Source of the DNA: Patescibacteria group bacterium
Lineage (GTDB): Bacteria; Patescibacteriota; WWE3; JAUXAW01; JAYEID01
Direction: 5' to 3'
NCBI GenBank assembly: GCA_034659915.1
Contig: JAYEID010000002.1
Span: 2,089 to 66,088, forward strand
Length of the DNA: 64,000 bases
The notes beneath the pieces are model-generated. The model was not told the origin of the DNA and ran no database searches. It worked only from the letters and a program-made list of their open reading frames with translations. Positions 2,670 through 64,000 of the stretch are shown here, one piece after another. How positions within the stretch are numbered: the first letter of the stretch is position 1; every line of letters begins with the position of its first letter. The position numbers and the translations under genes were made by a program.

Positions 2670-4283
2670 ATGAAAGTAGCAATTGGCTACCCTCCTTTTG
2701 ACAATCCCAAAGGTCGTGCGTTTTTGGCACAAAACAGGCAGTTTCAGTGGGGTACATCTCCTTGGACTGCTTACCCCGTTGTTCCCGCGTATGCCGCGTC
2801 TTTCCTGCAAGAGAAGGGTTATGAAGTATATTGGCTGGACGGGATTTGGGGTATGCAAACATACGCCGAATGGGAAAAAGATCTTTTGGAAATTAATCCC
2901 GATGTTTTGATGTTGGAGACCAAAACCCCGGTTATCAAACGCCATTGGGAGATTATTGATAGGTTGAAGGACATAACTTGCCCGCATTCCCTAGCCCCTG
3001 GGGCTGCGGCCAAAGAAGCCCCAGGGGCTTCTCCTGCGGGCAGTGGTCTAAGTATTGTTCTTGTTGGTGACCATGTGACTGCTTTGCCGGAGGAATCAAT
3101 GCAAAACAGCAAGGTGGATTATATCCTTACCGGTGGGGATTACGACTTTTTGCTTCTTAATCTTTGCAATCATCTTTCTAAAGGGGAAGATCTTGAACCC
3201 GGAATTTGGTATAGAAAGCCCGCTGCAGGGAAAGCCCCAGGGGCTGGACCTGCCTTGCCGGCAGGCAGGTCTGCAGAAGCCCCTGGGGCTGAGGAATGCA
3301 GCGGATCATCTCCTTCGGCCGACTATTCCTCCACCGGCCATTTTGTCCTCAACCACGACCTTAACGAACTCCCTTTTATTGACCGCGACCTTACCCAGTG
3401 GGAGCTTTACGCCTACCAAAATTCCAACTACGCGCGCACTCCCGGAACTTATACCATGTTTGGCCGTGACTGTTGGTGGGGTAAGTGCACATTTTGCAGC
3501 TGGACGACTTTGTATCCCGGAGAGCACTTTAGGGTAATGAGTGTTGAAAGGGCTTTGGACGAGGTAGGCCACATCCTTGAAAATTACCCAGTTCGTGAAA
3601 TTATGGATGATTCGGGTACTTTTCCAGTAGGCGAGTGGCTCACCGATTTTTGCCGCGGCATGATTGAGCGCGGGTATAATGAAAAAGTGCGGATTAGTTG
3701 TAATATGCGTTTTAATGCCGGATTGGACAAGGAGGATTACGAGCTGATGCGGGAGGCGGGTTTTCGCTTTTTGCTTTACGGTTTGGAATCTTACAACCAA
3801 GAAACTTTGGATAGAATTCAGAAAAACCTTAAAGTGGAGCAAATTGAGCCCCAACTCAAGTGGGCAAAAGAGGCGGGCTTAAACCCCCACCCTACGGCAA
3901 TGGTTGGCTACCCTTGGGAAAGTAAAGAGGAGGCAAAGCGCACCCTGAACTTTGCCCGGGAAATGTTTAAAAAAGGCTATAGCGATACTTTGCAAGCAAC
4001 CATTGTTACTCCCTACCCCGGTACACCGCTGTTCCGCGAGGCGGAGGAAAAAGGCTGGCTCAAAACTAAAGATTGGGATCGTTATGACATGCGCGAACCA
4101 ATTTTAAAAACAGAAATGAGTGACGAAGAAATAAAAGGCTTGGTGCAAGGCTTGTATAAATCTGTACTTACGCCGAAATTTATTGCGCGCAAAGCATGGG
4201 AAGCTCTAACTGACTGGGAAACTTTTAAATACTACTTCCGCATGATGCGAAAGTTTTTTAGCAAACTGGTGGACTTCCGCTGA
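2670..4283 (+). CDS. B12-binding-domain/radical-SAM-like protein (C-x4-C-x2-C cysteine cluster) carrying two in-frame REP-like inserts
   Basis: N-terminal Rossmann-like segment (VAIGYPPFDNPKGRAF...KGYEVYWLDG). Cys cluster CWWGKCTFCSW followed by YGLESYNQETLDRI, typical of class-B radical SAM enzymes. Family-A palindromic elements at 2982-3040 and 3222-3303 are translated as ...APGAAAKEAPGASPAGSG... and ...AGKAPGAGPALPAGRSAEAPGAEECSGSS. Confidence 0.5.
   Translation: MKVAIGYPPFDNPKGRAFLAQNRQFQWGTSPWTAYPVVPAYAASFLQEKGYEVYWLDGIWGMQTYAEWEKDLLEINPDVLMLETKTPVIKRHWEIIDRLKDITCPHSLAPGAAAKEAPGASPAGSGLSIVLVGDHVTALPEESMQNSKVDYILTGGDYDFLLLNLCNHLSKGEDLEPGIWYRKPAAGKAPGAGPALPAGRSAEAPGAEECSGSSPSADYSSTGHFVLNHDLNELPFIDRDLTQWELYAYQNSNYARTPGTYTMFGRDCWWGKCTFCSWTTLYPGEHFRVMSVERALDEVGHILENYPVREIMDDSGTFPVGEWLTDFCRGMIERGYNEKVRISCNMRFNAGLDKEDYELMREAGFRFLLYGLESYNQETLDRIQKNLKVEQIEPQLKWAKEAGLNPHPTAMVGYPWESKEEAKRTLNFAREMFKKGYSDTLQATIVTPYPGTPLFREAEEKGWLKTKDWDRYDMREPILKTEMSDEEIKGLVQGLYKSVLTPKFIARKAWEALTDWETFKYYFRMMRKFFSKLVDFR
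2982..3040. repeat. family-A GC-rich double palindrome (AGCCCCWGGGGCT cores), in-frame inside CDS 2670..4283
   Basis: ccgcattccctagcccctggggctgcggccaaagaagccccaggggcttctcctgcggg. The core GAAGCCCCWGGGGCTTC is self-complementary except for the centre base. Confidence 0.85.
3222..3303. repeat. family-A element (opposite orientation) with nested family-D hairpin CCTGCCTTGCCGGCAGGCAGG, in-frame inside CDS 2670..4283
   Basis: gctgcagggaaagccccaggggctggacctgccttgccggcaggcaggtctgcagaagcccctggggctgaggaatgcagcgg. Confidence 0.85.
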
Positions 4284-4329
4284 AACTAGGAAAATTCAAA
4301 CGAAGTGAAGAGTTTTCCTTCAGTTGAAG

Positions 4330-4375
4330 CGGCCCCGTACCGTATCCCGACTTGTCGGGATTCTGGTTCGGGGTC
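4330..4375. repeat. nested cruciform-type hairpin (family F core ATCCCGACTTGTCGGGAT inside CCCCGTACC/GGTTCGGGG stem) in GC-rich spacer between radical-SAM-like gene and uxs-like gene
   Basis: ggccccgtaccgtatcccgacttgtcgggattctggttcggggtc. The same CCCGAC..GTCGGG core recurs at 29568-29586 and 29628-29648 inside CDS 29007..30950. Confidence 0.6.
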
Positions 4376-4513
4376 AATGGGGAGTAGCGACGTTTACGCT
4401 GCACTCCACAATCCGCGGGAATCCAGTACAAATCAGCGAAAATCCGTAACAACTGCGGAATGCGGAAAGCTGTGTGCGGATAACCGAAACCACAATAGTT
4501 AACTAGTACAATT

Positions 4514-38164: not shown

Positions 38165-38198
38165 GAAAGGACGATATGAAAGGACGGGTCTTGCGAGC
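38165..38198. repeat. family-C half-site (GAAAGGACGggtcttgcgagc with local 13-bp duplication), right-hand inverted terminus flanking RAYT-1
   Basis: gaaaggacgatatgaaaggacgggtcttgcgagc. Its reverse complement matches 38883-38903 (gctcgcaagacccgtcctt). Confidence 0.75.
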
Positions 38199-38921: not shown

Positions 38922-41036
38922 CTATTCGCAGAGCGTTTTGCCGTTTGGGTATGTACTTTCTTTCCCGTAGATTTTGGTTATTGGGTGGTTAGCGATGAAG
39001 TATGTTTTTAGTTCTATGTAGCTATCCAGAGTTTTGTCTAGACTTTCGTAGTACCAGCTGATAGGAGCCTCGACTATAATTATATTATCTGCGTCTTTTT
39101 CAAAAACGTTTTCTTGGTCTGCAATTGGTTCTTTTCCAAGGTAAAAAGCGGGAATGCGAGCCTTCTCGTTGGTACTGTAGCTCCCTGTTAAACAACCGTT
39201 TTTGTAAAGCTTTGCTATCTTTTCCCAACCACGTCTGTGTGGGAAACCAAAGATTCCTTGGACTTTGTTGGCAAGATTTTTGTCAATACTAATCATTTCT
39301 CGACCAAAAACTTTTTTACTTCCCCACATATATTCGGGTCTTTTTTCGACGAAGATTTTGTGGTTGTAGGTTAGCGTTGTAGTAGTAATATAGATACCGA
39401 CTAATACTGTAATAAGTTGGACTGCCCGCCCAATTCCCCAGAACCAGGTTCTGGGACCGGTCTTAGAACCTGATTCTTTTCCTTGGCCAGCTCTAGACTT
39501 TGCGTTGAGAAGGGAAAAGGTTTTCGCAATCGTATAACCTGAAAGGATAAACAAGGGGATAAAGATAATATAAACATGGGTGCGGGGAGTTTTGTTGAAG
39601 AACAAGTAAAAACAAGAAGAAGCTAGAAACCAGGCAAAAAGGCTGGCTTTGATTTTATCAATTTTTGGGGTAAAGAAAAGAACGCCAAGGGTAATTAGGG
39701 TTAAAGTGTAAAACATTAAAGTGGATCCGCGCGGTTTGATCCATTGGGTAGAAAACCAGAAGGTGAAAATTAAGGTAACAGGTAATAGGTAATAGGTGAT
39801 AGGGATTAGTTTGCGGAAGGCGGAGAGCGGTGTGCGGAAAGCGGATGTATTTTTGAGAAGAGGGAATTGAGAATTGCGAATGATGAAATATAGAGAAAGG
39901 CAAGAAAGAATTACCAACGCAAAAATCATCTCTTTCGGCATATAGAATTTCATAAGAATTTTGCTATAAAGGGTGCGGGGCATGAAACCACTCCCTAGGA
40001 CTCTTCTTTGCAAATAGTTTGAGGTTTCTCCGGCGGTGGAGTTTAGAAAAAAGGGAACGTAGAAACTTGCTGTTAGAATTAGAAAAGGTGTGAAGAAGGC
40101 TAGGGCTTTCTTTTTCCAAAATCCAAGCTTTATAGAATTGCAGTCATTCTGAGGTCTCCCGGGCTGCTGGGAGGCCGAAGAATCCTCTGCTGTATGCTGC
40201 GTGCTTTGTTGTAGGTGGTCTTTAGTCGCGGGGGATTCTTCGTCGTTTGGAGACTCACTCCTCAGAATGACACGGGATATTAGATCTTTTCCGAAATAGA
40301 AGCAAATAAAGGCAAGGAAGGTTAGCGCGTCGTAGTGGGCGAGTACTGCAATTCCGAAGAGTAATCCGGCTAAACAAAAGTAGCCGCATTCCCCAGCCCC
40401 TGGGGCTGCAGTCAAAGAAGCCCCAGGGGCTTCTCCTGCGGCGGCCGGGGAATCGCCCGGCTTTGATTTTATATTTGCAATTCCAAACAACGATCCTGCT
40501 AGTGGAAGCTGCCCAATTCCCCAGAACCAGGTTCTGGGACCGGTCTTAGAACCTGGTTCTTTTCCTTGGCCAGCCTTTTTGTTCTCAACAGCAAGGAGAA
40601 ATAAGATAATTAAACCAAGTAACAACTGCACAAAGGCTTGGTATTGGGTAATCCTTGAAAAAGCAATGAACAGACCGTTAGTTCCTGCTAGTGCTGCACT
40701 AAGTATGCCTGCCCAATTGTTTTTTGTGAGCTTTCGTGTAACTTCGAAAAGTACATAGACAAAGGCAATACCAGCAAGGGCGTAAGGCAGGCGAATTATC
40801 CATTCTTCCCAGGTACCTGTTAAGTTATATGTCAACCAATTGATAACAAATTGTAAAGGGCCTTTATCGCGGCTCAGGAGGTATTGAATAAAGCTGCCCT
40901 GAAAGTAACGGAAGTCTAGAGTAAGAATTTCGTCACCTTGGTATTCCGCGTATCCTAAATCCTGCAACCGAACCCAGGCGGAGTAGGCGAGCGTGATGAT
41001 AAGTGTTATCTTTTGTGTTAGTTTTAGTTTTTTCAT
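38922..41036 (-). CDS. multi-pass membrane protein (GT-C-like) carrying two family-B and one family-A in-frame inserts
   Basis: TM-rich throughout. The peptide AGQGKESGSKTGPRTWFWGIG occurs twice, encoded by family-B elements at 39431-39490 and 40514-40573. AAAGEAPGASLTAAPGAGECG is encoded by a family-A element at 40384-40444. Confidence 0.5.
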   Translation of the reverse strand: MKKLKLTQKITLIITLAYSAWVRLQDLGYAEYQGDEILTLDFRYFQGSFIQYLLSRDKGPLQFVINWLTYNLTGTWEEWIIRLPYALAGIAFVYVLFEVTRKLTKNNWAGILSAALAGTNGLFIAFSRITQYQAFVQLLLGLIILFLLAVENKKAGQGKEPGSKTGPRTWFWGIGQLPLAGSLFGIANIKSKPGDSPAAAGEAPGASLTAAPGAGECGYFCLAGLLFGIAVLAHYDALTFLAFICFYFGKDLISRVILRSESPNDEESPATKDHLQQSTQHTAEDSSASQQPGRPQNDCNSIKLGFWKKKALAFFTPFLILTASFYVPFFLNSTAGETSNYLQRRVLGSGFMPRTLYSKILMKFYMPKEMIFALVILSCLSLYFIIRNSQFPLLKNTSAFRTPLSAFRKLIPITYYLLPVTLIFTFWFSTQWIKPRGSTLMFYTLTLITLGVLFFTPKIDKIKASLFAWFLASSCFYLFFNKTPRTHVYIIFIPLFILSGYTIAKTFSLLNAKSRAGQGKESGSKTGPRTWFWGIGRAVQLITVLVGIYITTTTLTYNHKIFVEKRPEYMWGSKKVFGREMISIDKNLANKVQGIFGFPHRRGWEKIAKLYKNGCLTGSYSTNEKARIPAFYLGKEPIADQENVFEKDADNIIIVEAPISWYYESLDKTLDSYIELKTYFIANHPITKIYGKESTYPNGKTLCE
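39431..39490. repeat. family-B palindromic element (CCAGGTTCTGGGACCGGTCTTAGAACCTG), in-frame in CDS 38922..41036
   Basis: caattccccagaaccaggttctgggaccggtcttagaacctgattcttttccttggccag. Copies at 40514-40573 (same gene) and 55030-55090 (plus-strand gene). Confidence 0.8.
40384..40444. repeat. family-A element in-frame in CDS 38922..41036
   Basis: ccgcattccccagcccctggggctgcagtcaaagaagccccaggggcttctcctgcggcgg. Confidence 0.85.
40514..40573. repeat. family-B element, second copy in same CDS
   Basis: caattccccagaaccaggttctgggaccggtcttagaacctggttcttttccttggccag. Confidence 0.8.
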
Positions 41037-41775: not shown

Positions 41776-43167
41776 TCTGTTGCCCTGAAAAGTTTCTAGA
41801 TAAGTTTCTGCAACAGCTTCCCACCTATAACCCTTCGCCATTTCTTTCGCATTTTCTGCTAAGTTTCTGCGTAATTCTGCATTCTTTTCTAATCTTATCA
41901 TCTCTTCCGCGAGTTCCTCGGCGTTTTTAGTTTCGAAGAGAAGTGCGGTTTTTCCATCTTCAAGTATTTCGGCGAGGCCCCCAGTCTTAGAGGCAATTAT
42001 TGGTTTACCTGCTGCTGCTAACTCTAAGGCAACAATGCCGAAGGGTTCTCTGTACGAGGGGATAATTGTAAAGTTTGCGTTTTGTATGTATTGAAGCAGT
42101 TCGATCCCTGATTTGAATCCCACAAAGCTGATTTTTTCCTCTAGGTTTTTTACTTTTACTAATTTTTCTAATTCTTTGCGGCTGGTACCGTCGCCGACAA
42201 TAACTAAATTACTGTTCAACTCGTCTTCTACTTTTGCGTAGGCTTTGATTAAGGTATCCACACCTTTTTTTGGTACTAGACGGCCGAGGTAAAGAATGTA
42301 GGGGGAAAGACTCGCCAATTTTTGAGGGTCGGCTAACTTCTCAACCGCCGCACCTGCCTGCCGGCAAGGCAGGTTCCCTAGCCTCTGGGGCTGCGGAAAA
42401 GAAGCCCCAGGGGCTTCTCCTGCGGCGGCGCAGGCACCTACTTGGGCTAAGGGGCAGCCGGTGCAGGATGATTTTGTGGGTGATAAGTCCCGTCCTTTTT
42501 GTAAGGACGGGACTTTACTTTTTAAAAGGTCTCCGATTTGGAAAAATTTTTGGTCAACACCGTTAGCAATTATTTCAATTTTCTTCTCGGCTTGGGGAAA
42601 GTTATTGGTAAGGTCTTCTTTTATGTATTCGGAGTTAACAATAATTTTTCTTGCGCGGTTAATTAGTTTTTTTAGGAAGAACCGGTACCACAGCTTTTTT
42701 CCAAAAACTTGTAGATCATTGCCGTGGATGTTGAGGATTAGAGGTGCAGGGTTGGGTGAGAATAGGTCGCCGCATTCCTCAGCCCCAGGGGCTGGGTCCG
42801 CAGAAGCCCCTGGGGCTTCTCCTGCGGCTAACGCTAACCAGACATAGACCGAGGAATCGTCCGGAAAGTGGTAGTTGACAATGTCCGGGTTATATTTAGA
42901 AACAAGTCGAACGAGATTGGTTAGACCGGTTAGGAAACGAAAGGGGAACGCAAGGAAACCCAGAAGTGATCGCGGTAAGTTTAACCAGACTCGTTGAACA
43001 TCTATGCCGTCCACTTGAGCTTTTTTCTCTTTTGCCTTACCCATTTGGGAAGCAATAACTAATACTTCATGACCCTTTGCTTTAAATTCTTTTGCCAGAT
43101 TTAAAACAACATTTTCGACCCCTCCAGTAAAAGGAAAAAATCTGGAAGAAATTAAAAGTATTTTCAT
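41743..43167 (-). CDS. glycosyltransferase family 4 (GT-B) carrying two family-A inserts and one family-C insert
   Basis: MKILLISSRFFPFTGGVENVV N-terminus; C-terminal EPFGIVALELAAAGKPIIASKTGG (E-x7-E). Inserts are translated as LAAGEAPGASADPAPGAEECGDL (42769-42828), GACAAAGEAPGASFPQPQRLGNLPCRQAGAAV (42354-42428) and KVPSLQKGRDLSP (42485-42517). Confidence 0.8.
   Translation of the reverse strand: MKILLISSRFFPFTGGVENVVLNLAKEFKAKGHEVLVIASQMGKAKEKKAQVDGIDVQRVWLNLPRSLLGFLAFPFRFLTGLTNLVRLVSKYNPDIVNYHFPDDSSVYVWLALAAGEAPGASADPAPGAEECGDLFSPNPAPLILNIHGNDLQVFGKKLWYRFFLKKLINRARKIIVNSEYIKEDLTNNFPQAEKKIEIIANGVDQKFFQIGDLLKSKVPSLQKGRDLSPTKSSCTGCPLAQVGACAAAGEAPGASFPQPQRLGNLPCRQAGAAVEKLADPQKLASLSPYILYLGRLVPKKGVDTLIKAYAKVEDELNSNLVIVGDGTSRKELEKLVKVKNLEEKISFVGFKSGIELLQYIQNANFTIIPSYREPFGIVALELAAAGKPIIASKTGGLAEILEDGKTALLFETKNAEELAEEMIRLEKNAELRRNLAENAKEMAKGYRWEAVAETYLETFQGNRSISRSAEKSK
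42354..42428. repeat. composite family-D hairpin plus family-A element, in-frame in GT4 gene
   Basis: ctgcctgccggcaaggcaggttccctagcctctggggctgcggaaaagaagccccaggggcttctcctgcggcgg. Confidence 0.8.
42485..42517. repeat. family-C full hairpin (AAGTCCCGTCCTTtttgtAAGGACGGGACTT), in-frame in GT4 gene
   Basis: aagtcccgtcctttttgtaaggacgggacttta. Near-identical copies at 63758-63791, 55603-55642 and 38686-38722. Confidence 0.85.
42769..42828. repeat. family-A element in-frame in GT4 gene
   Basis: gccgcattcctcagccccaggggctgggtccgcagaagcccctggggcttctcctgcggc. Confidence 0.85.
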
Positions 43168-43203: not shown

Positions 43204-45036
43204 TTGTGCTTTAATAGAGGTGTGAAGATAAAGAAGCTCTGGCGTGAAATTTCTATTTTTCTTTTCTCTGTTTTTTTGCGCTTGCCAAAGCTTGGCACGG
43301 GAATTTTCAACGCAGATGCTTTTCGTTGGAAAGCGCGTTCCTATAATTTTTGTAGTGGTTTGTTTGGTTTAGACTTTGCACAAACTGTCCAGTCTTCGCA
43401 TCCTGGGGTTACGCTGATGTGGATTGGAACTGTGGGGATAAAAGTGTACAACGCATTTAACAGTTTATTTCGCGGTTCTTTACCTAGCGGAGATCAGCAA
43501 GTATTTGAATTGCACTTTGTGCAGAAGTTTTTTGTTGTGTTGGTATTTGCCGCTCTTTTTAGTTTTGCTTTTTACCTTTTGCGGAGATTGACAAACACTA
43601 CCATTGCTTTTTTTGCTGTGCTGCTTTTAACTTTTGAACCTCATTTTTTGGCTCACACTAGGATTTTTCATCTTGATGGGCTACTTTCCATGTTTATGTT
43701 TGTTTCTGTGTTGGCACTCCTGTGCTATTTCGAGTTTTCGGGGAATCAAAATAGGGAGGTCAGCGGCGGTGATGAAGGCCAGCCAATTCCTCAACTCCGG
43801 AGGTTAAATCGAACTGCCGCATTCCCAAGCCCCAGGGGCTTCTGCGGACCTAGCCCCTGGGGCTTTCCATGCAGCGGTTTTCCCTTGCTAGTGTGTTTGA
43901 TGCTTTCCGCGGTGTTTGCTGGCCTGGCTTTGCTTACTAAAAGCACCGCCTTATTTCTTATTCCTTTTGTGGGTCTGTTTGTGTTATTGGAATTATTTTT
44001 AAAAAGGGTTCGTCCAGCCGCCTCTCTAATCTCCGAGGTTAAATCCGCAGAAACCTTGGAGGTTTTCCCGGCGGCCTCTTTGTGGAAGGAATATTTTTTG
44101 TCATTTGGGATTTGGATTTTGGTGCTTGCGGCAACTTTCACTGCTTTTTGGCCGGTAATGTGGGTGCAGCCTCTAAAAACTCTTCAACTTTATTATTCTG
44201 GTATTACTTTGGAAGGATTTGGCGGGCACGGAAACTACTTTTTTGGTCAACGGACTACAGATCCTGGACCCTTGTTTTATTTAATGAGCTTGTGGATTCG
44301 GTTGTCACCGTGGCTTTTGGTTCTGGTTGTTTATGAGGTTTTTTCTTGTACTGCAAAAACTCTAAGGTCTTTATGTCAAAAAGAAAAGTTGGGAGTTGTT
44401 TTAAAAAAGAAGGGTTTGACAGTGGCTTTTTCTCTTTTTGTCATTCTTTTTTACATTTTTATATCTGTTCCTTCCAAAAAGCTAGAAAGATATTCTTTGC
44501 CTTTGTACCCAGCCTTGGCTGTATTGGGTGGCGTTGGCCTGTATAATGCCAAGAAAATCTTGGTTGTTTGGCTGAAAAGGTTTGAACTCGGATTTTCAAA
44601 TCTCAAACAGGTTTTGATTTCTAGATTTAATGTAGTAGTGGCATTGTTGCTTTTTGTAGCCTTTATGGGTTCTACTCGAGGGTTGTTTCCGGATTATTTA
44701 GCTTACCGCTCGCCTTTGGCTGAGGGTTTGGAAGGTACTGTGGGTATAATACAGCCTGATTGGGTGTTTGGCGCTTCTCGAGTAGGTGAATTTTTTAATA
44801 GCTTGGAATTGGAAAAAACTCCTGTTGTTTATACTTTTAATCCTGGGCAGTTTCGACTATTTTTGCCTGGATATGTACGAGATACGCAAGATGTGGAAGG
44901 GCTGAGCACCGCAGACTTTATTATTCTTCCTGTTTGGTCGGAGCGTAATTTGGAAATAGATCCTGAGCTTTTTGATCTTGTTGAGGTGATAGAGGTTAAC
45001 AACACTCCTGTATATAATATTTACCAGGCGCGCTGA
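43204..45036 (+). CDS. GT-C-like membrane protein (HPGVTLMWIG paralog family) with a family-A insert read in an alternative frame
   Basis: FRWKARSYNF...HPGVTLMWIGTVG matches the 33572/35145 paralogs. The family-A element at 43817-43877 is translated here as RTAAFPSPRGFCGPSPWGFPCSG rather than the GEAPGAS-type peptide. Start codon is uncertain. Confidence 0.5.
   Translation: MCFNRGVKIKKLWREISIFLFSVFLRLPKLGTGIFNADAFRWKARSYNFCSGLFGLDFAQTVQSSHPGVTLMWIGTVGIKVYNAFNSLFRGSLPSGDQQVFELHFVQKFFVVLVFAALFSFAFYLLRRLTNTTIAFFAVLLLTFEPHFLAHTRIFHLDGLLSMFMFVSVLALLCYFEFSGNQNREVSGGDEGQPIPQLRRLNRTAAFPSPRGFCGPSPWGFPCSGFPLLVCLMLSAVFAGLALLTKSTALFLIPFVGLFVLLELFLKRVRPAASLISEVKSAETLEVFPAASLWKEYFLSFGIWILVLAATFTAFWPVMWVQPLKTLQLYYSGITLEGFGGHGNYFFGQRTTDPGPLFYLMSLWIRLSPWLLVLVVYEVFSCTAKTLRSLCQKEKLGVVLKKKGLTVAFSLFVILFYIFISVPSKKLERYSLPLYPALAVLGGVGLYNAKKILVVWLKRFELGFSNLKQVLISRFNVVVALLLFVAFMGSTRGLFPDYLAYRSPLAEGLEGTVGIIQPDWVFGASRVGEFFNSLELEKTPVVYTFNPGQFRLFLPGYVRDTQDVEGLSTADFIILPVWSERNLEIDPELFDLVEVIEVNNTPVYNIYQAR
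43817..43877. repeat. family-A element (variant arrangement) inside CDS 43204..45036
   Basis: ccgcattcccaagccccaggggcttctgcggacctagcccctggggctttccatgcagcgg. Confidence 0.8.
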
Positions 45037-50898: not shown

Positions 50899-52773
50899 AT
50901 GCTTAAGAAAATAAAAATAGACAGACTTCTTTTAGTCATTTTTGTTCTTGCTCTTATTCTTCGTCTTTTCGGTATCTGGCACGGTTGGCCGTTTATTTAT
51001 AATATAGATGAACCAGCTTTGGTTCGGAGTGCTATTGGGATTCGTTTTAATCCTAATCCTGGACATTTTGACTGGCCTCATTTGCATTTTTATCTTTCTT
51101 TTGGTGTTTTAGCTTTTTTTTACCTAGTTCGCGGTTTTTTTCAGATTGTGGGTTTGCAACTTCTTTTGATGCAGATAATCCCGTTCTTTTGGAAAGACCC
51201 CGCAATCTATTACTTGATTGTGCGTGTTTTTAATGCGCTTCTTGGTGCGCTGACTATTGTTCCTGTGTATCTTACAGGGAGGGTTTTGTTTGTAGGGGAG
51301 GAGGTTGTCGCAGGAGAAGCCCCTGGGGCTTCTGCAGACCCAGCCCCTGGGGCTGAGGAATGCGGCGGGGGAGATTTGGCGGGCCGTCAATCCAGCTCTC
51401 GCAAGGACGGGTCTTTCCTAGGCCGTTGGTTCGGTGATTTTAGTAATATAGCTTCTTTGCTTTCTGCTTTGGCGTTTGCGGTCTTTCCACTCCATGTAAG
51501 AGATTCTCACTTGGCAACAGTTGATGTTCCTATGGTGTTTTGGCTTGCTTGGTCCATGTATTTTGCGGCGAAAGTTTTAAAAAGTTCTGCTTGGCGCAAT
51601 TATATTTTTGCTGGAATATTTGCAGGGTTGGCTGCTTCAACTAAGTATAACGGTGTCTTTATTTTGTTAGTTATTGTTTTGGCACACTGTTTGCAAATTT
51701 GGTTAAAAAGCCAGGGAGAAGAAACAAAGTTTGTTGCGACTTTTTTCTCAAAGAAGCTTTTGAAAGTTTTTGTTTCTGGGCTCTCTGCTCTACTTGTTTT
51801 CTTTCTTGGTACTCCTTACATTCTTTTTGATTTTAAAACCTTTTGGTCTTATGAGTATGGGCGGGGTTTTCTTTGGTTGTTAGAAGAAACTGGTAGTGTT
51901 TCCAGCTGGGCGGAGTATTTTGCCAATTTTAAATATTTAAGTTCTTTACCTAAGGATCTTTCTTGGACCCTTTATTTAATAGTCCTTTTTTCAATTGGTG
52001 AGTTTTTATGTTTACTACTTAAAAAGATTATTAAGATAGAATTTAAATTACCTGTCAGAATGAATGTTTGCAAGGACGGGTCTTGCCAAAGTGCTTTTTC
52101 ATGGCAATTAGCGAGACTTGCTTTTTTGCTCTTCTTTCCTGTTTTTTATTGTTTATTTGTTATGCGGGGGAAGAAGTTTAATCCTCACTATTTCTTAGCG
52201 GTATACCCGTTTCTTGCATTGGTAGTGGGAAGATTTACAGCAAAAATCGGTCGTTTTGCTAGTTATTTATGGAATTCGGCAGAAGTACCAAGCACCAGAT
52301 CACAAAATCTAAATAAATCTCAAGTTTCAAAACGACAGATCAAAAATAGGGGCGGCGAAGGTGGGACATTTGGGATTTCCGCGCGTAGCGTACTCTTTGC
52401 ACTTATCTTGTTTGTTTTTGTAGTTCCTTTGTATCGCTCTTTTTACACTGGGTTGGTATATTCACGTGTAGATACGAGAACGCAAGCTAGTCAATGGGTA
52501 GGTGAAAATGTTTCGCTGGGATCTAGGGTTGCAATTGTAGGAACAGAAACTATTGAATTAACTGTAGAAGGTGTAAAGTATAAGACATACAAAAAGCTTA
52601 GTATTTTGGATAAGTTTGGGCAATACGATTTTGTGCTTGTTACTAATGAAAAACAAGATTATATGCTGGAAAAAATGGCTGATAATGGTTTTGAATTAGT
52701 TCAGGAGTATAGTAACGAAAAACCAACTCGCCGCGGTCCTTATGTTTGGATTTTTAAAAATATACAAGAGTGA
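50899..52773 (+). CDS. GT39/ArnT-PMT-like glycosyltransferase (GT-C) with family-A and family-C in-frame inserts
   Basis: YNIDEPALVRSAIG (DE loop-1 motif of ArnT/PMT enzymes) and many TM helices. The insert VVAGEAPGASADPAPGAEECGGGDLAGRQSSSRKDGSFLGRW is encoded by 51308-51368 plus 51399-51417. A second family-C-derived CKDGSC lies at 52069-52088. Confidence 0.6.
   Translation: MLKKIKIDRLLLVIFVLALILRLFGIWHGWPFIYNIDEPALVRSAIGIRFNPNPGHFDWPHLHFYLSFGVLAFFYLVRGFFQIVGLQLLLMQIIPFFWKDPAIYYLIVRVFNALLGALTIVPVYLTGRVLFVGEEVVAGEAPGASADPAPGAEECGGGDLAGRQSSSRKDGSFLGRWFGDFSNIASLLSALAFAVFPLHVRDSHLATVDVPMVFWLAWSMYFAAKVLKSSAWRNYIFAGIFAGLAASTKYNGVFILLVIVLAHCLQIWLKSQGEETKFVATFFSKKLLKVFVSGLSALLVFFLGTPYILFDFKTFWSYEYGRGFLWLLEETGSVSSWAEYFANFKYLSSLPKDLSWTLYLIVLFSIGEFLCLLLKKIIKIEFKLPVRMNVCKDGSCQSAFSWQLARLAFLLFFPVFYCLFVMRGKKFNPHYFLAVYPFLALVVGRFTAKIGRFASYLWNSAEVPSTRSQNLNKSQVSKRQIKNRGGEGGTFGISARSVLFALILFVFVVPLYRSFYTGLVYSRVDTRTQASQWVGENVSLGSRVAIVGTETIELTVEGVKYKTYKKLSILDKFGQYDFVLVTNEKQDYMLEKMADNGFELVQEYSNEKPTRRGPYVWIFKNIQE
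51308..51368. repeat. family-A element (canonical 'forward' copy) in-frame in GT39-like gene
   Basis: tcgcaggagaagcccctggggcttctgcagacccagcccctggggctgaggaatgcggcggg. Confidence 0.85.
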
Positions 52774-54828: not shown

Positions 54829-56178
54829 ATGAAAATTATTTTTCTTTCTAACCAACTCTTCGACTACCCTTTAAAGACCAACAAATGGCACGTGGCTACC
54901 CGGGTGGCTGAGCGGGGGCATCGAGTTCTTTTTATTGATCCTCCAATTCGTTTTCGCAAAGTAATAAAACAAATTTTCCAAGGGCGTTGGGGTTTGGGAA
55001 GGTTACTTTCAGGGTTTTACGCTCCGGTCGGCAATTCCCCAAAGCCAGGTTCTGGGACTGGTCTTAGAACCTGGCTTTTGTCCTTGCCGATCGCTACTTT
55101 AAAAGTCTTTACCCCTCTGACCTCTGTGCCTTCCGAATCACCAAACCTTACTCGTTTCAACGTTAACCGAATGAAAAGGAGGGTTCCGGAATTTTTTGAT
55201 GGCGAAGCTATCCTTTGGGTTTATAATCCAGCAATGATTGAGTATATTGAGAAGATACCACACAAGTTATTGGTCTATGATTGTGTGGATGATTATCCTT
55301 CTATGGCTAATTACCAGCGGCTGGGGCTTTCTGATGAGATTGCGAAGAAGGAGGAGCAGATTGCGAGCCGTGCTGACCTTATTTTTGCAACAACTAAAAA
55401 TTTGGCGGAGAAGCTCCGGCAGCGGAATGACAACGTTTATTACGTGGGAAATGCGGGAGACTATGCACGCTTTGCCCCTGCGGCTAAAGCGGAAATTATA
55501 ACCCGCCAGCCCGCTTCACCGAATCGAGGCGAGCCGGCGGACAAATTTCAAATTTCAAATGAAGGAGAAGAAAGAAGAACCGGCGAGGAAAAGTTGCCAA
55601 AGGAAAGTCCCGTCCTTGCGGCTCAAAGGACGGGATTTTCCGGAGTACCAAAACCAATTATCGGCTTTACCGGAGCAATTGACGATTACAAAGTGAACCT
55701 CCCTCTTCTTGTTCGAGTTGCTAAGGACCATCCGGAAAAATCTTTAGTTTTGGTAGGACCAACTGGAGTAGCGGGCGACCAGCCTGATCTTTGTGACCTT
55801 AAAGGACTTGAAAATGTTTATTTTATTGGCGAACGTCCGTATGAAGAAATGCCCGCGTTTTTTGCCCGGTTTGATGTTTACATTATTCCCTATAATCTAA
55901 ACGACTATACGGTAAAGGGTTGTTTTCCGGTTAAGTTTTTGGATGCTTTGGCGGCTGGATTGCCCACTGTGGTTACCAATCTCCCTGCCTACGAAGATTT
56001 TGCTGACGTTTCTTATATTGCTGGAGATGACGAGGAGTTTGGTAAGTTGATTCAAAAAGCATTAGACGAAAATTCCAAGGAGAAAGTAGAGAAGCGTATG
56101 CGCATTGCTCGTCAAAATTCATGGAACAATAAGGTGGAAAAAATGCTTCAGATTGTTACTTCAAAGCTTTCTTCGTAG
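54829..56178 (+). CDS. GT-B-fold glycosyltransferase (GT1/GT4-like) with family-B and family-C in-frame inserts
   Basis: C-terminal half ...LVLVGPTGVAGDQ...FDVYIIPYNLNDYTVKGCFPVKFLDALAAGLPTVVTNL is GT-B-like. GNSPKPGSGTGLRTWLLSLP comes from the family-B element at 55030-55090. PKESPVLAAQRTGFSG comes from the family-C hairpin at 55603-55642. Confidence 0.55.
   Translation: MKIIFLSNQLFDYPLKTNKWHVATRVAERGHRVLFIDPPIRFRKVIKQIFQGRWGLGRLLSGFYAPVGNSPKPGSGTGLRTWLLSLPIATLKVFTPLTSVPSESPNLTRFNVNRMKRRVPEFFDGEAILWVYNPAMIEYIEKIPHKLLVYDCVDDYPSMANYQRLGLSDEIAKKEEQIASRADLIFATTKNLAEKLRQRNDNVYYVGNAGDYARFAPAAKAEIITRQPASPNRGEPADKFQISNEGEERRTGEEKLPKESPVLAAQRTGFSGVPKPIIGFTGAIDDYKVNLPLLVRVAKDHPEKSLVLVGPTGVAGDQPDLCDLKGLENVYFIGERPYEEMPAFFARFDVYIIPYNLNDYTVKGCFPVKFLDALAAGLPTVVTNLPAYEDFADVSYIAGDDEEFGKLIQKALDENSKEKVEKRMRIARQNSWNNKVEKMLQIVTSKLSS
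55030..55090. repeat. family-B element in-frame in plus-strand GT gene
   Basis: gcaattccccaaagccaggttctgggactggtcttagaacctggcttttgtccttgccg. Same DNA orientation as the two copies that are translated on the minus strand in CDS 38922..41036. Confidence 0.8.
55603..55642. repeat. family-C full hairpin in-frame in GT gene
   Basis: gaaagtcccgtccttgcggctcaaaggacgggattttcc. Confidence 0.8.
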
Positions 56179-58183: not shown

Positions 58184-58960
58184 TTACAGTGTGTTCTTGA
58201 ATTGTTCTCGTAAATGCTTTTTGTAAGCCTTTTTTTGAGATCTGAACTTTTGGAACCAACCAAAATCATCATCTAAGGCTACTGTTTCTAGACGTAGAGG
58301 CTCAAATTCGTCGACTTCAGCCATGACAAATTCCAAGTATTCTCTAGGGGACTTAAACAAGCTAGTTACAACTTGGGGGTTAATAAAATTGCCATAATTT
58401 TCTTCTAGGTATGTAGATAAGCTAGACCACGGGTACTCAACTAGTTTATTTTTGCTTTCCAGCCTGAGCTTACGTGGGTTAATGTGTTGATATCGAGTTA
58501 GATGTACCAACTGTTCATTTGATTCTATTAGAACACTTTTGTAAGGTCCTTCAAACAACCGGCCAGTTCTTTCTAGTCTAATATTAAAGTAGTTAGTGTA
58601 TGCAACGCCAATTTTGTGCATGAAAAAAGAAATACCATCTTTTACTCGCTGTTTAAGTGTAATGTGGTAATGATTAGGCATTAAGCAAAAGGAAATTATG
58701 TCTACTGGAGGCTTGATTCGTTTTTGTTCTAAGTGTTTTAGAATTGTCTGTTTGCTGGGCTCTGTTTGTGACTGTTTAAGTCGTTTTAGTAGGGTACTGT
58801 AAGGATAATCGTATTTTAAGTAATGCTTAAGGAGGAAAATAAAACGTTTGTAGTAACTGGGGTCAGGAAATGTTTCGCGCTTTTCTACTCCTCGGTTGTA
58901 TATGTGGTAGATTCTCCCTGTTCTTAAAGGGTTTCTATCCATCGAGTTAATGATACTCAA
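58184..58960 (-). CDS. REP-associated tyrosine transposase (RAYT-2; IS200-like HUH Y1 transposase)
   Basis: GRIYHIYNRGVEKRETF, HUH motif MPNHYHITL, C-terminal RYQHINPRKLRL...EYPWSS. About 35-40% identical to RAYT-1 by eye. Confidence 0.8.
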   Translation of the reverse strand: MSIINSMDRNPLRTGRIYHIYNRGVEKRETFPDPSYYKRFIFLLKHYLKYDYPYSTLLKRLKQSQTEPSKQTILKHLEQKRIKPPVDIISFCLMPNHYHITLKQRVKDGISFFMHKIGVAYTNYFNIRLERTGRLFEGPYKSVLIESNEQLVHLTRYQHINPRKLRLESKNKLVEYPWSSLSTYLEENYGNFINPQVVTSLFKSPREYLEFVMAEVDEFEPLRLETVALDDDFGWFQKFRSQKKAYKKHLREQFKNTL

Positions 58961-59011: not shown

Positions 59012-59041
59012 ATATCTAGAGGCTGCCTCTAGATAAGGTTG
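59012..59041. repeat. family-E palindromic element, 5'-flank of RAYT-2
   Basis: gatatctagaggctgcctctagataaggttg. Confidence 0.85.
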
Positions 59042-60737: not shown

Positions 60738-60901
60738 TGTTCTCTAGTTGTATTTAGTTCGCGGGTTAAATAACTCATCCGCCAATTCCTCAACCTTGCA
60801 GGTTCCAAAAACCTCCAAGGTTTTTCCTTGGCGGTTCTTTGCTTTAGATTTTTCAGATCTCATTTAGTTTATCATAAAGGCTGTTTCATGCTATCATTTC
60901 C

Positions 60902-62209
60902 TTGATGAAAATTTGTTATGTTTTAAATTCGGGAGACCCCGGTGGGGTGGAACAACACGTTTTGGACCTGACGCGGGGAATGGTTGAACGTGGGCACGAG
61001 GTTTATGTGGTTTGTCCTTGGGGAAAGATGGTTAATAAATATTTTGAAATTGGAGCCCAAGTGCGGATAGATAAGCCCCAACTTGATGTTGACCCCTTTT
61101 ATATTTCACGGTTGGCCCGGTTTATTAATAAGATTCAACCGGATATTTTACATGTGCATATGTTGAAGACAACGGTGAACGGGTTGATTGCGTCTAAGGT
61201 TTTTAGATTGTCTTCTCGTATTTTGGGACAGCCCGGTTCCCCAACTTCCGCAGGAGAAGCCCCTGGGGCTGAGAAATGCGGTGCCCCTTCCTTGCCGGCT
61301 TCTTCATTGCCCTATACAGTTGCGCATATCCATACACCTCTTCCTGAGTGGCAAATTCCCGGGTGGAAGAAGAAGTTAAATATTTTTGTAAATAGGATAA
61401 TTTCTAATTGGGCGGCAGATGTGGTTATTGCTCTTACCGAATCTCGGAAAAGGGTTAAGATTGAAGGGGAGGGGATAGATCCAAAAAAGATACGCGTGAT
61501 ACCAAACGGAGTGGACACAAAAAATATCAAATTACAAATTTCAAATGACAAAGCAGATTACAGAAAGAAGTTGGGAATAAGGGAGGATGCTATTTTGGTA
61601 GGGACGCTATCTCGGCTGACAGTAGAGAAGGGAATAAGTTATTTAATTGAGGCAGTTCCTAAATGGCCAACATACAAAATACAAGATACTAAATGCGAAA
61701 TACTAATTGGGGGGTCGGGGGAGTTGAGAGAGGAATTGGAGGACAGGGCGCGGGAGTTGGGATTACAAGTTTGTGTAGAAGAAAAGTCCGCTGCAGAAGA
61801 AGCCCCAGGGGCTGAAGAATGCGGCGGTTCAGGTACAACGGTTCGGTTTCTTGGTTTTGTGCCCGAAGATGAGAAGTGGGATTATCTTGCTGCTTTGGAT
61901 ATTTTTGTTTTTCCTTCCCTTGCCGAGGGTTTTGGAATTTCTCTTATTGAGGCAATGGTAACTGGGTGTGCTTGTCTGGCTTCTGATTTGGAAGTTCTTC
62001 AGGAAGTAGGCGGGGAGACAGTTGAATTTTTTAGAGCTGGTGATCCGCAGAATTTAGCAAAGAGGCTGGCTGTTTTAATTAAGGACAAGGAGAAAAGGCA
62101 AAGTCTTGGGGATCGTGCTCAAAAGAGGGTGGAAAAAAAATATTCCCTGGAGTTGGTTTTGGATAATTACGAAAATCTTTATAAAGAGTTACGTTTAAAT
62201 TTTTCTTAA
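60902..62209 (+). CDS. glycosyltransferase family 4 (GT-B) with two short family-A in-frame inserts
   Basis: MKICYVLNSGDPGGVEQHVLDL...; C-terminal FPSLAEGFGISLIEAMVTGCACLASD (E-x7-E). The inserts SAGEAPGAEKCGAPS (61249-61282) and AAEEAPGAEECGGSG (61789-61826) are single-core family-A variants. Confidence 0.8.
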   Translation: MMKICYVLNSGDPGGVEQHVLDLTRGMVERGHEVYVVCPWGKMVNKYFEIGAQVRIDKPQLDVDPFYISRLARFINKIQPDILHVHMLKTTVNGLIASKVFRLSSRILGQPGSPTSAGEAPGAEKCGAPSLPASSLPYTVAHIHTPLPEWQIPGWKKKLNIFVNRIISNWAADVVIALTESRKRVKIEGEGIDPKKIRVIPNGVDTKNIKLQISNDKADYRKKLGIREDAILVGTLSRLTVEKGISYLIEAVPKWPTYKIQDTKCEILIGGSGELREELEDRARELGLQVCVEEKSAAEEAPGAEECGGSGTTVRFLGFVPEDEKWDYLAALDIFVFPSLAEGFGISLIEAMVTGCACLASDLEVLQEVGGETVEFFRAGDPQNLAKRLAVLIKDKEKRQSLGDRAQKRVEKKYSLELVLDNYENLYKELRLNFS

Positions 62210-62210
62210 T

Positions 62211-62942
62211 ATGAATAGCAATGAGATAAGTAGGTTACATGAATTGGAGAAATATTATTGGTGGCACGTTGGCCGAAAAAGAATTTTGGAAACTTTTTTA
62301 AAGAGAATATCTTTACCGAAAGATTCTAAGATTTTAGATGTAGGTTGTGGAACTGGAGAGACAACCAAAATTTTTGAAGATTATGGGAAAGTTTGGGGTG
62401 TTGATGTTTCAGACAAAGCTTTGGAGTTTTGCCGAAAGCAAGGATTGCAAAATCTTAGGCAAAGTGGTGCTCGCCATCTTCCTTTTGAAGACAGATTTTT
62501 TGATGTTGTTGCAATGTTGGATATTTTGGAACATATAGAAGAGGATGAGGAAGCATTGCGGGAAGTTTATCGTGTGCTTAAAGGCCATGGTTATTTACTT
62601 ATAACAGTTCCAGCTTGGCAGTTTTTGTGGAGTGACCACGATGAGGCGTTAGAGCACAAACGCCGGTATATACATTTTGAGTTACGCAGCAAGTTAGAAA
62701 AAGCTGACTTTAAGATTCAAAGGTTAAGTTATGCAATTATGTTTTTATCCTTTCCAATAGTTTTCTGGCGCTTGTTTCAAAAAATTTTTGTGCAAAGTTC
62801 GTATCCTAAGACTTCTTATGTTGTTCTTCCTCCTTGGCTAAATACTTTTTTTATTTTTTTACTTAGGCTAGAAGCAAGATTGTTAAAATATATCAACTTG
62901 CCATTTGGAATTTCTTTGGTATGTTTAGTCCGTAAGAAGTGA
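62211..62942 (+). CDS. class I SAM-dependent methyltransferase
   Basis: ILDVGCGTGETT motif I, DVVAMLDILEHI, LKGHGYLLI. Confidence 0.75.
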   Translation: MNSNEISRLHELEKYYWWHVGRKRILETFLKRISLPKDSKILDVGCGTGETTKIFEDYGKVWGVDVSDKALEFCRKQGLQNLRQSGARHLPFEDRFFDVVAMLDILEHIEEDEEALREVYRVLKGHGYLLITVPAWQFLWSDHDEALEHKRRYIHFELRSKLEKADFKIQRLSYAIMFLSFPIVFWRLFQKIFVQSSYPKTSYVVLPPWLNTFFIFLLRLEARLLKYINLPFGISLVCLVRKK

Positions 62943-62997
62943 TTGTAGAGGTTCAAGGACTGTGGTTGCAGAAGGCAAATTACTGGTTATTAATTAC

Positions 62998-64000
62998 AAT
63001 GAGAGTTTTATTTCAATCTCGGATAGATTTATTTGACCGCCGTGGAGGAGATACTGTGCAAATGGAAAGGACTGCACAGGAACTTAATAAACTCAGCGTA
63101 GATGTAGATATTGATTGTTCCCCAAGAAAGAATCTGTCTCAGTATGATTTGGTTCACCTTTTTAATATTGATTGGCCAGCCAATGTTTATCTGTGTGCAA
63201 GAAATGCGAAAAAACAAGGTAAACCTATTGTTCTTTCACCTATCCACCATTCTTTTGAAGAAATAGAACGTTACGAAAGGGAATATCAGTTCGGTCTCCG
63301 GCGCATAGTTAATCTACTTTTTAGAGGGCGAGAACAACGCGAAAAATTTAAAGATTTTTATCGGGCAGTAGTTGATCCAAAGAAAATACCTTCGACGATT
63401 GTCGAATTTAAGAAGGGAGTTATGGAGGAACAGCGGGAGCTTCTGGGAATGGTGCATGCCGTTTTGGTGCAAACAGAAGCAGAGACAGCTGATATTGTGG
63501 AGGATTTTGGTGTGTGTTTTTCGATCGCCGCAGGAGAAGCCCCTGGGGCTTCCAGAGTTCTAGCCCCAGGGGCTAGGGAATGCGGGGGCCGTGTTTACAA
63601 GGTGGTAAATGGTGTGGACCAGCGTTTTGCAAACGCTATGCCCGATTGGTTTATAGAGAACTACGGGTGGGAGGATTTTGTGGTTTGCGTGGGCAGGGTT
63701 GAACCTCGTAAAAACCAGTTAGCAGTAATTGCTGCCGGTTTCCGTTTGCGGGAGAGGCAAGTCCCGTCCTTTTCGCAAGGACGGGACTTTCAAACTCCCC
63801 AACTCCTCTTTGTTGGGAAGATTTCCTGGCGTCATCCGGAATATGCCTTGCGTTTTAAGAACTTGGTTAGAAAATATAATTGGATTAAACACATTGAAAG
63901 TATCCCTTATAAAAAGATGGGTTCGGTTTATGCAGCAGCAAACACCCACGTTTCTGCTAGTTGGTTTGAAACTACTGGTTTGGTAAGCTTAGAAGCAGGG
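62998..64000 (+). CDS. glycosyltransferase family 4 (GT-B), 3' end beyond window; carries family-A and family-C in-frame inserts
   Basis: Open frame from ATG 62998 with no stop before the window end, which is why it is absent from the ORF track. VVCVGRVEPRKNQ and ...ETTGLVSLEAG (E-x7-E region). Inserts AAGEAPGASRVLAPGARECGG (63527-63586) and RQVPSFSQGRDFQT (63758-63791). Confidence 0.7.
63527..63586. repeat. family-A element in-frame in partial GT4 gene
   Basis: gccgcaggagaagcccctggggcttccagagttctagccccaggggctagggaatgcggggg. Confidence 0.85.
63758..63791. repeat. family-C full hairpin in-frame in partial GT4 gene
   Basis: caagtcccgtccttttcgcaaggacgggactttc. Confidence 0.85.

Follow-up and report, generated by a model that had tools for sequence, protein, structure and literature searches.

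A 64-kb stretch of contig JAYEID010000002.1 (assembly GCA_034659915.1), from a Patescibacteria group bacterium and hereafter called the window, carries ten copies of a short GC-rich palindromic element, family A, inside open reading frames (ORFs) that it leaves open. Family A is very probably a repeated palindromic element that was secondarily inserted into these ORFs, and its distribution suggests a selfish or mobile element. We favor, with a probability of about 0.55, the reading that family A is a non-autonomous hairpin similar to REPINs, the doublets formed by repetitive extragenic palindromic (REP) sequences. It would be spread as single-stranded DNA (ssDNA) by an enzyme similar to the REP-associated tyrosine transposases (RAYTs), and kept where it lies in frame in protein loops. 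The window was compared with 24 fetched loci, labeled by L numbers, and with orthologous proteins labeled by P numbers.

With at most one mismatch allowed, AGCCCCWGGGGCT has 18 matches in the window, where dinucleotide-preserving shuffles lead one to expect 0.05 (none of 100 reached 18). The matches resolve into eight doublets, which are full elements, and two singlets, which are half elements, and they fall exactly in all ten intervals listed in a preliminary description of this DNA. As described there, the elements are GC-rich in AT-rich DNA (65-73% GC, 69.5% overall, in a window of 39.1% GC) and no reading frame is broken, every copy lying inside a long ORF, on both strands, with independent assemblies in agreement. 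The count of at least eight host genes was too high: the ten copies sit in seven ORFs, and an eighth (54829-56178) is reached only when a sister type, type B, is included. The radical SAM host and the three GT-C membrane glycosyltransferases were found as described, but the GT-B glycosyltransferases number three (all GT4) rather than four. The density of ten copies per 64 kb stands, but the spread is uneven, with zero copies between 4.3 and 38 kb.

Family A forms one branch of a larger superfamily with 15 copies in the window, three of them type B, and about 30 in relatives, two metagenome-assembled genomes (MAGs) of the GTDB included. Trained on 25 elements, a covariance model finds every one of the ten family A and three type B copies again, together with two further copies at 44013-44078 and 60773-60839. 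In the related loci, it yields 30 distinct matches, about half of them outside the training alignment. The host ORFs are listed below, each followed by its elements; for type A, the strand is the one that carries the motif ATTCC, and bits are scores against the covariance model. Copies are named by their start (2982 is 2979..3042, 3222 is 3220..3304 and 42354 is 42345..42428).

2670-4283, radical SAM (B12-type) ORF with two family A copies
2979..3042, plus strand, type A, residues 105-124, 75.7 bits
3220..3304, minus strand, type A, residues 185-212, 52.9 bits
38922-41036, minus strand, PMT_2 / GT-C ORF with one family A and two type B copies
39421..39494, plus strand, type B, arms AGAACCWGGTTCT, centre GGGACCGGTCTT, 73.4 bits
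40383..40445, plus strand, type A, 72.5 bits, z -4.9
40504..40577, plus strand, type B, the second in this ORF, 81.3 bits
41743-43167, minus strand, GT4 ORF with two family A copies
42345..42428, plus strand, type A
42769..42828, plus strand, type A, residues 114-133, 75.4 bits
43204-45036, plus strand, PMT_2 / GT-C ORF with family A copy 43817 and superfamily copy 44013
43817..43877, plus strand, type A, ATTCC strand is the sense strand, 67.6 bits
44013..44078, plus strand, superfamily copy missing from the preliminary description, 34.6 bits
50899-52773, plus strand, PMT_2 / GT-C ORF with one family A copy
51308..51368, minus strand, type A, residues 137-157, 63.1 bits
54829-56178, plus strand, GT4-like ORF, host of type B only
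55022..55095, plus strand, type B with hybrid arms AAAGCCAGGTTCT / AGAACCTGGCTTT, 77.4 bits
Spacer upstream of the GT4 ORF at 60902
60773..60839, plus strand, superfamily copy, the only intergenic one in the window, 43.4 bits
60902-62209, plus strand, GT4 ORF with two half copies
61249..61282, minus strand, half element (both flanks and one arm), 26.5 bits
61789..61827, minus strand, half element, 28.8 bits
62945 to the window end, where it runs off, GT4 ORF with one family A copy
63527..63586, minus strand, type A, 67.4 bits, z -4.75, reproduced in L023

Logan assemblies from two further sequencing runs agree with the window (99.989% identity over 9192 bp and 100% over 1469 bp), and every element in the compared DNA (six copies) is present. 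Since two independent assemblies reproduce them, family A elements are not assembly artefacts. The sole difference between the window and L023 is one base at position 57069, in a poly-A run of 22-23 that lies in the spacer between ORFs 56246-56770 and 57112-58086.

Of the 15 superfamily copies in the window, 14 are intragenic, and in relatives, too, almost every copy falls within a long ORF. Random insertion into a sequence that is 89% coding already predicts 14 of 15 copies in ORFs, so what is unusual is the tolerance of intragenic copies and not a targeting of genes.

One long hairpin with a conserved bubble

Full family A elements without a nested hairpin are 58-66 nt long. Read 5' to 3' on the ATTCC strand, they consist of an outer stem, ATTCCYY, arm 1, a centre, arm 2, TYTCC and the partner of the outer stem. 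The arms are 13 nt each, arm 2 being the reverse complement of arm 1, and the centre is a near-palindrome of 10-13 nt (TCTGCRGA in type A, GACCGGTC in type B) that is flipped in some copies. The 5' ATTCCYY and the 3' TYTCC form an unpaired bubble, of which ATTCC is invariant in an alignment of 25 elements. The outer stem, 5-10 bp and GC-rich, is different in nearly every copy yet complementary, and outer stems differ yet pair perfectly even between copies with identical 49-nt cores. Copy 2982, for example, has the outer stem TGCCCGCA/TGCGGGCA, the bubble TTCCCT/TCTCC and the arms AGCCCCTGGGGCT / AGCCCCAGGGGCT. Copy 44013 has a type-A-like centre, AAATCCGCAGA, between arms AATCTCCGAGGTT / AACCTTGGAGGTT, and the intergenic copy 60773 has the outer stem CCGCCAA/TTGGCGG and arms AACCTTGCAGGTT / AACCTCCAAGGTT.

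Covariation was measured on the 25-element alignment, drawn from at least six assemblies, against 500 shuffles. In the whole-element hairpin 92.9% of cells are paired, compared with 64.8% after shuffling; 22 of 23 pairs have changes on both sides, and the covariation score is 0.70 versus 0.20 (0 of 500 shuffles reach the observed value). Sliding the register by 1-3 columns lowers pairing to 28-56%. Arm 1 pairs with arm 2 in 98.8% of cells, central base included (AU 11, UA 6, GC 4, CG 2), and three copies with hybrid arms keep this pairing while they have lost local self-pairing. Because of these hybrid-arm copies and the covarying arm centres, the conserved structure is one long hairpin, and two independent local hairpins are ruled against. 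The "double palindrome" of the preliminary description thus holds as a repeat but not as two independent palindromes. The minimum-free-energy fold of the ssDNA is this same hairpin, at -22 to -36 kcal/mol (z about -4.8 to -7.0).

Each of the two half elements is a full element that lacks 24 nt, one arm and the centre; these 24 nt are the arm-to-arm spacing, which is why half elements stay in frame. Two window copies only, 3222 and 42354, are lengthened by a nested 21-nt hairpin, family C (CCTGCCTTGCCGGCAGGCAGG). It occupies the apical loop of copy 3222 (3249-3269; ssDNA fold -36.2 kcal/mol, z -7.0) and the junction of bubble and 5' outer stem in copy 42354 (42353-42373), the latter position recurring at L010 2061. 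These positions are unpaired in folded A and B elements. Beyond the two nested copies, family C occurs at 48915-48935 in the window, at L010 2061, where it adjoins a type B copy, and at L015 2941. The free-standing copy in the spacer at 48915 has flanks like those of the L015 copy, and this locus may be conserved.

The superfamily is more diverse than the window alone indicates. The closest relative of the radical SAM host (L001, 83% amino acid identity) has an element in the same loop and in register, with arms AGAACCWGGTTCT where family A has AGCCCCWGGGGCT, the change in one arm being compensated in the other. Further arm variants are AAAGCCSGGCTTT, AAAGCTWAGCTTT, AACCTCGAAGGTT, AACCCTTCGGGTT and CAACCCWGGGTTG. 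Family A itself occurs beyond the window in L004, a JGI contig with one intergenic copy; in L019, a close relative with five superfamily copies in a 2.4-kb contig, three of them with family A arms; and in L015, a GTDB MAG locus with a degenerate copy (AGCCCC arms) that was seen after a first GTDB scan had given no match to the exact double palindrome. A GTDB scan with one genome per species, for ATTCC, an arm of any sequence and the type B centre, returned eight true matches in two MAGs of the Candidate Phyla Radiation (CPR) and four chance matches (L005, L006, L011 and L016), which have no palindromic arms and no match to the covariance model. A metagenome scan gave one true match besides L002 and L003, which are unrelated tandem repeats.

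Insertions in protein loops

Orthologues of the host proteins show that the elements are insertions. The radical SAM orthologues P0009, P0010 and P0014 measure 482-484 aa and lack both inserts of the 537-aa window protein; copy 2982 is also missing from L017, where site 1 is empty. Many other radical SAM orthologues have different extra segments at the same two loops. Likewise, GT4 orthologues of 369-370 aa have no insert at all, compared with 474 aa in the window. L019 (GCA_964476415.1, 79% amino acid identity) shares both GT4 type A copies but lacks precisely the 21-nt hairpin nested in copy 42354, and in L020 (Logan SRR7048220) the site of copy 42354 is empty. At the site of copy 42769, L020 has a type B element, and P0124 and P0126-P0128 are insert-free. 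Orthologues thus do not hold these peptides as conserved ancestral sequence.

At four loops, close relatives carry a different type of element at the same place, and the two that were aligned base for base share register and orientation. Between sister lineages, type A in one stands opposite type B in another at the first site of both the radical SAM and the GT4 gene; radical SAM site 2 has A, B and another A variant, and GT4 site 2 has family D (described below) versus a B-like element. L019 1619-1685 is one locus in this comparison. This switching may reflect a hot spot, the targeting of existing hairpins or conversion in situ.

The inserts lie in predicted coil between confident secondary-structure elements, in line with the loops that the preliminary description had expected. 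In the AlphaFold model of the radical SAM protein, residues 108-124 and 186-216 are coil with pLDDT <50, near the inserts (residues 105-124 and 185-212) and between confident helices and strands; low-confidence segments at 246-254 and 267-286 are unrelated to elements. In the GT4 model the blocks at 121-140 average pLDDT 50-54, falling below 50 only at 119-122 and 131-134. Residues 218-279, in the linker between two Rossmann-like domains, are also below 50, and the remainder is mostly above 85. Inserts of the GT-C hosts fall between hydrophobic segments or at their edges, and the E-x7-E motifs of the glycosyltransferase hosts are intact, again as described.

The peptide AGEAPGAS...APGAEECGG given for the element applies to eight of the ten copies, which read as AAGEAPGAS..APGAEECGG, but not to copies 2982 (PHSLAPGAAAKEAPGASPAG) and 43817 (AAFPSPRGFCGPSPWGFPCSG), which are in the other orientation and in two further frames. 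The sense strand of the host of copy 40383 gives AAAGEAPGASLTAAPGAGECG, and AAGEAPGASADPAPGAEECGG is an example of an insert-derived peptide. One of the six frames of the element carries a stop codon and five are open; finding eight of ten copies in one of the five has a probability of about 4e-4, which points to a selective filter acting on the peptide. Orientation follows the strand of the host gene and not that of the genome. Across the window and its relatives, the superfamily occurs in both orientations and several frames and encodes unrelated peptides. No fixed element length divisible by three was found among the elements examined. About one third of the genes in a 26-kb stretch carry repeat inserts that are predicted to be translated, and inserts make up as much as about 20% of one protein. 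It is unlikely that they are excised from the RNA or skipped by translational bypass, because every intragenic copy is in frame and stop-free.

RAYT-like genes and the spread of family A

The preliminary description overlooked two RAYT-like transposase genes of the Y1 (HUH) type within the window. Features around them are the following.

38180..38198, minus strand, 19-nt inverted repeat AAGGACGGGTCTTGCGAGC (plus-strand sequence), downstream of gene 1
38220..38873, minus strand, RAYT-like gene 1, 217 aa, Pfam Y1_Tnp 34.6 bits
38883..38901, plus strand, partner 19-nt inverted repeat GCTCGCAAGACCCGTCCTT, upstream of gene 1
42485..42515, strand not assigned, family D hairpin AAGTCCCGTCCTT...AAGGACGGGACTT, in frame in GT4 ORF 41743-43167
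29340-29370, 38688-38718, 55605-55637 and 63759-63789, other family D hairpins, all in frame in ORFs
58184..58960, minus strand, RAYT-like gene 2, 258 aa, Y1_Tnp 24.9 bits, NCBIfam 37.6 bits

Gene 1 scores 68.3 bits against the NCBIfam model REP_Tyr_transpos, and its best match in the PDB is the E. coli TnpArep 4ER8 (E = 0.001), with which its HUH and YIxxNP motifs align. The two proteins are 37% identical, with the HUH motif and the tyrosine motif RYxHxNP invariant. The transposase family has at least 8000 relatives, and the best matches carry the name transposase and come from Patescibacteria, Microgenomates and Parcubacteria.

Perfect 19-nt inverted repeats enclose gene 1, and a 13-nt part of them recurs in the arms of family D, a set of hairpins of the form AAGWCCCGTCCTT, loop, AAGGACGGGWCTT in five ORFs. 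In the repeat at 38180..38198, the 13 nt AAGGACGGGTCTT equal a family D arm, and the 13-nt part AAGACCCGTCCTT is identical to the arms of the family D copy at 29340 and differs by one or two bases from those of the other four copies (38688, 42485, 55605 and 63759). One of these hairpins, at 38688-38718, lies in frame within gene 1. By sequence identity, then, gene 1 and family D are linked. Lone right arms of family D were also seen at 51403 and 52072, inside the GT-C ORF 50899-52773.

Gene 2 has identical 23-nt palindromes, TATCTAGAGGCTGCCTCTAGATA, at 58152-58174 and 59013-59035, of which no dispersed copies were found in the window. Its orthologues in L015, L021 (two genes) and L022 have flanking palindromes of their own. 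Altogether, each of the six RAYT-like genes examined stands between palindromes of its own that are perfect or almost perfect. In L021 the flanking palindrome recurs elsewhere on the contig, and in L022 its core, AAAGCTWAGCTTT, equals the arms of a type B element in L004.

We propose that the family A element would fold as an ssDNA hairpin that a RAYT-like Y1 (HUH) transposase would cut and paste in trans. Most insertions would land in genes because about 89% of the sequence is coding, and the survivors would be the copies in frame, without stop codons and in tolerant loops. These may be translated as coil segments of 11-28 residues, mostly in the frame that gives small or hydrophilic residues. 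Three secondary events could follow. Loss of 24 nt between the arms would leave half elements that stay in frame, the 21-nt hairpin would nest where the folded element is unpaired, and a sister type would take over the same loop. In favor of the transposase link are the two RAYT-like genes of the window, the match of gene 1 to family D, the palindromes around all RAYT-like genes examined, the core shared by L022 and L004, and the seat of family C hairpins at single-stranded positions of folded A and B elements. That a RAYT-like enzyme mobilizes family A in particular we put at slightly below even odds.

Several observations weigh against this proposal. Both RAYT-like genes score below the curated NCBIfam cut-off of 80. 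Both are flanked by palindromes other than those of family A, and neither the window nor the 24 loci yielded a RAYT-like gene with AGCCCCWGGGGCT arms at its flanks. The 13-nt identity between the L022 flanks and the L004 arms spans two assemblies and, given the number of comparisons, has an estimated chance probability of roughly 1-5%. There is no target-site duplication or direct repeat around 30 elements examined, no conserved target sequence and no base conserved outside the outer stems. The GTAG/CGTC tag that E. coli-type RAYTs cleave is absent from the 25-element alignment, which has an invariant ATTCC and ...TNNC... instead. Leading-strand orientation shows no significant bias (10 versus 5 copies), although GC skew is uniform. 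Simple cut-and-paste transposition does not predict the copy-specific, perfectly paired outer stems. Finally, two assemblies of the same population show no polymorphism.

The most serious alternative, which we consider unlikely but by some way the best of those left, is a selfish palindrome of the kind of Rickettsia palindromic elements (RPEs), with no dedicated transposase. It would spread or be replaced by recombination, gene conversion or template switching at hairpins, and the RAYT-like genes would serve only their own palindromes. The succession of element types at four loops, with shared register and orientation at two, is what conversion would give, and the flipped centres, the missing target-site duplication and target motif, and the want of a RAYT gene flanked by family A arms all fit. 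Hairpins can be perfected by template switching, a process known as quasipalindrome correction, and outer stems that are copy-specific but complementary despite identical 49-nt cores are consistent with it. Conversion cannot, however, make the first copy at a new site, and the empty site and insert-free orthologues show that new insertions occurred. The invariant unpaired ATTCC bubble suggests recognition by a protein, and the tie between the sister family D and a RAYT-like gene in the same window also argues against an enzyme-free process. Neither the transposase nor the conversion model explains the copy-specific paired outer stems or the type switching at four loops.

It is improbable, in our estimate, that the motif is instead kept for a benefit to the host, as an mRNA hairpin (ribosome pausing at domain boundaries, transcript stability) or as the DNA site of a structure-specific protein. 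The hairpins are very stable, strong covariation maintains their structure, and a palindromic element folds in either orientation; the second insert cluster of the GT4 protein lies in an interdomain linker, and elsewhere in bacteria an RNA-level role has been ascribed to REPs (PMC3733652). But presence varies among close relatives, deeper orthologues do not keep the positions, copies turn up in a spacer, in genes unrelated to each other and within other elements, and no Rfam family matches: Rfam 15 at the gathering score gave zero matches in the window, and a permissive scan of 40300-43000 gave chance-level hits far below threshold.

A flexible Ala/Gly/Pro/Glu linker of glycosyltransferases, selected at the protein level with incidental palindromy, would account for the shared frame of eight of ten copies and for the small, hydrophilic residues in predicted coil. 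This idea is close to refuted by the frame and orientation data, as two window copies and many in relatives encode unrelated peptides in other frames or orientation; in addition, sister types with different arms encode different peptides and keep base pairing, intergenic copies exist and orthologues work without inserts. Palindromes can in principle mislead assemblers, but an assembly or sequencing artefact such as chimeric joins is next to impossible here: nothing was found in its favor, the two Logan assemblies (99.989-100% identical across six copies) differ from the window by one homopolymer indel, and related copies come from NCBI, JGI, ENA and Logan assemblies.

Relation to known repeats and other features of the window

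The preliminary description compared family A to RPEs in an unrelated lineage. The kind of phenomenon and the lineage (Patescibacteria, not Rickettsia) hold, but the closest analogue is the REP/REPIN-RAYT system rather than RPE-1. A REPIN is a hairpin-forming doublet of REPs with a link to RAYTs (Bertels and Rainey, 2011, PMC3116915). REP units carry a conserved GTAG or CGTC tetranucleotide at one end, and intragenic REPs are also reported, most in Opitutus terrae and Rickettsia conorii, those of R. conorii being RPE-4 and RPE-6; intragenic REP dimers encode 20-30 residues in frame and can occur twice within a gene (Di Nocera et al., 2013, PMC3733652). Family A shares with these systems two inverted short palindromic units with a spacer that form one hairpin in ssDNA or RNA, the presence of several families per genome and of palindrome-flanked Y1 (HUH) RAYT-type genes in the same genome, and in-frame intragenic copies that sometimes occur twice per gene. 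It differs in its unpaired ATTCC / TYTCC bubble, its arms of only 13 nt and its patescibacterial host, and its candidate RAYT is proposed by inference. It also lacks two defining features of REPs, as it has no GTAG/CGTC tag, and 14 of 15 window copies are intragenic whereas REPs are mostly extragenic.

With RPEs, family A shares in-frame palindromic repeats in many unrelated genes of a small AT-rich genome, insert-free orthologues and loops that tolerate the inserts. RPE-1 is about 100-150 bp long and found in Alphaproteobacteria, compared with 58-66 nt in CPR bacteria here. We know of no transposase tied to RPE-1; here, RAYT-like genes adjoin, and the sister family D matches the inverted repeats of one. 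In TIRtrons (TIRYT), a RAYT-like gene stands between long terminal inverted repeats, which also make up families of dispersed repeats (PMC3733652). Gene 1, with its perfect 19-nt inverted repeats and dispersed joined copies (family D), resembles them. However, the dispersed copies here lie inside ORFs, even inside the transposase gene, and this likeness applies to family D and not directly to family A.

Elhai et al. (2008) reportedly described small dispersed repeats of heterocystous cyanobacteria, palindromes of about 21-27 nt that nest in other repeats. The nesting of the 21-nt family C inside two family A copies would be similar, but lineage and sequence are different and those repeats are mostly intergenic. 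Mitochondrial hairpins include the GC clusters of yeast, the double-hairpin elements of Allomyces and the repetitive hairpin-forming elements of sponges. They too are small and GC-rich, invade AT-rich reduced genomes, lie in part in coding or rRNA sequence and have no evident transposase; unlike family A, they are organellar and unrelated in sequence, and a candidate transposase family is present here. On such mitochondrial elements, see PMC2800124. Miniature inverted-repeat transposable elements are a poor match, given that no target-site duplication surrounds the 30 elements examined; no DDE transposase, from a possible parent insertion sequence, was found among the 47 ORFs of the 64-kb window. 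The absence of a fixed tetra- or pentanucleotide target speaks against a palindrome derived from IS200/IS605.

The general principle is not new, as both intragenic REP dimers and RPEs had been described before. What is new here is the lineage, the nearly all-intragenic location, the very small modular hairpin with a conserved bubble, the nesting and the succession of types at one loop. Our literature search found no account of such elements or of REP/RAYT systems in CPR bacteria, although it left subscription journals mostly uncovered and does not prove absence. CPR/Patescibacteria genomes measure about 1 Mb and are usually called streamlined. The CPR setting, the density of elements and the adjacent RAYT-like genes make the mechanism directly testable. 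If the link to RAYT-like enzymes is true, REPIN-type elements would have here a natural system with genes as their main abode, offering tractable hairpin-enzyme pairs to learn how HUH transposases read structure. The link would also explain much of the length variation among CPR orthologues, which affects alignment, annotation and structure prediction as well. A bolder and rather doubtful extension is that hairpin transposition in CPR bacteria is set by structure and not by sequence. Many RAYT-like paralogues would each read their own 13-nt palindromic arm, the shared unpaired ATTCC bubble would be the site of catalysis, insertion would prefer the single-stranded loops of existing hairpins, and types would succeed one another at the same codon in sister lineages, continually remodeling the surface loops of envelope-glycosylation enzymes.

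The window is 0.89 coding and covers a cell-envelope glycosylation region with many GT2, GT4 and GT-C glycosyltransferases, flippases and sugar-modifying enzymes; it has no tRNA genes. The radical SAM and GT4 host proteins are identical to NCBI entries named "Patescibacteria group bacterium", and their nearest named relatives are in MAGs of Shapirobacteria, Beckwithbacteria and WWE3; overall, host proteins are closest to MAGs of Patescibacteria and the Microgenomates group. Positions 8000-14000 form an island of 26-33% GC with all genes on the minus strand (sulfotransferase, methyltransferase, GT2, PGA_cap and flippase) and zero hairpin elements, which may be a recently acquired polysaccharide cluster. 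At 26501-27331, a gene for an AbiEii-type nucleotidyltransferase toxin stands beside small ORFs without a family match and may belong to a toxin-antitoxin or abortive-infection module.

The spacers 2349-2636, 27325-27387, 27954-28147, 28495-28613 and 28888-28973 are filled with AT-rich repeats of 7-nt (14-nt) period, and two large ORFs without a Pfam match, 20781-24662 and 29007-30950, contain internal repeats of 7- or 21-nt period. The spacer 41037-41742 is unusually long (706 nt) and includes a GIY-YIG-like ORF of 102 aa (41277-41585, minus strand), surrounded by four copies of a roughly 65-nt repeat whose hairpin is GAGAAATCA...TGATTTCTC. L008 has a hairpin like it near 2815, and the spacer may hold another small mobile unit.

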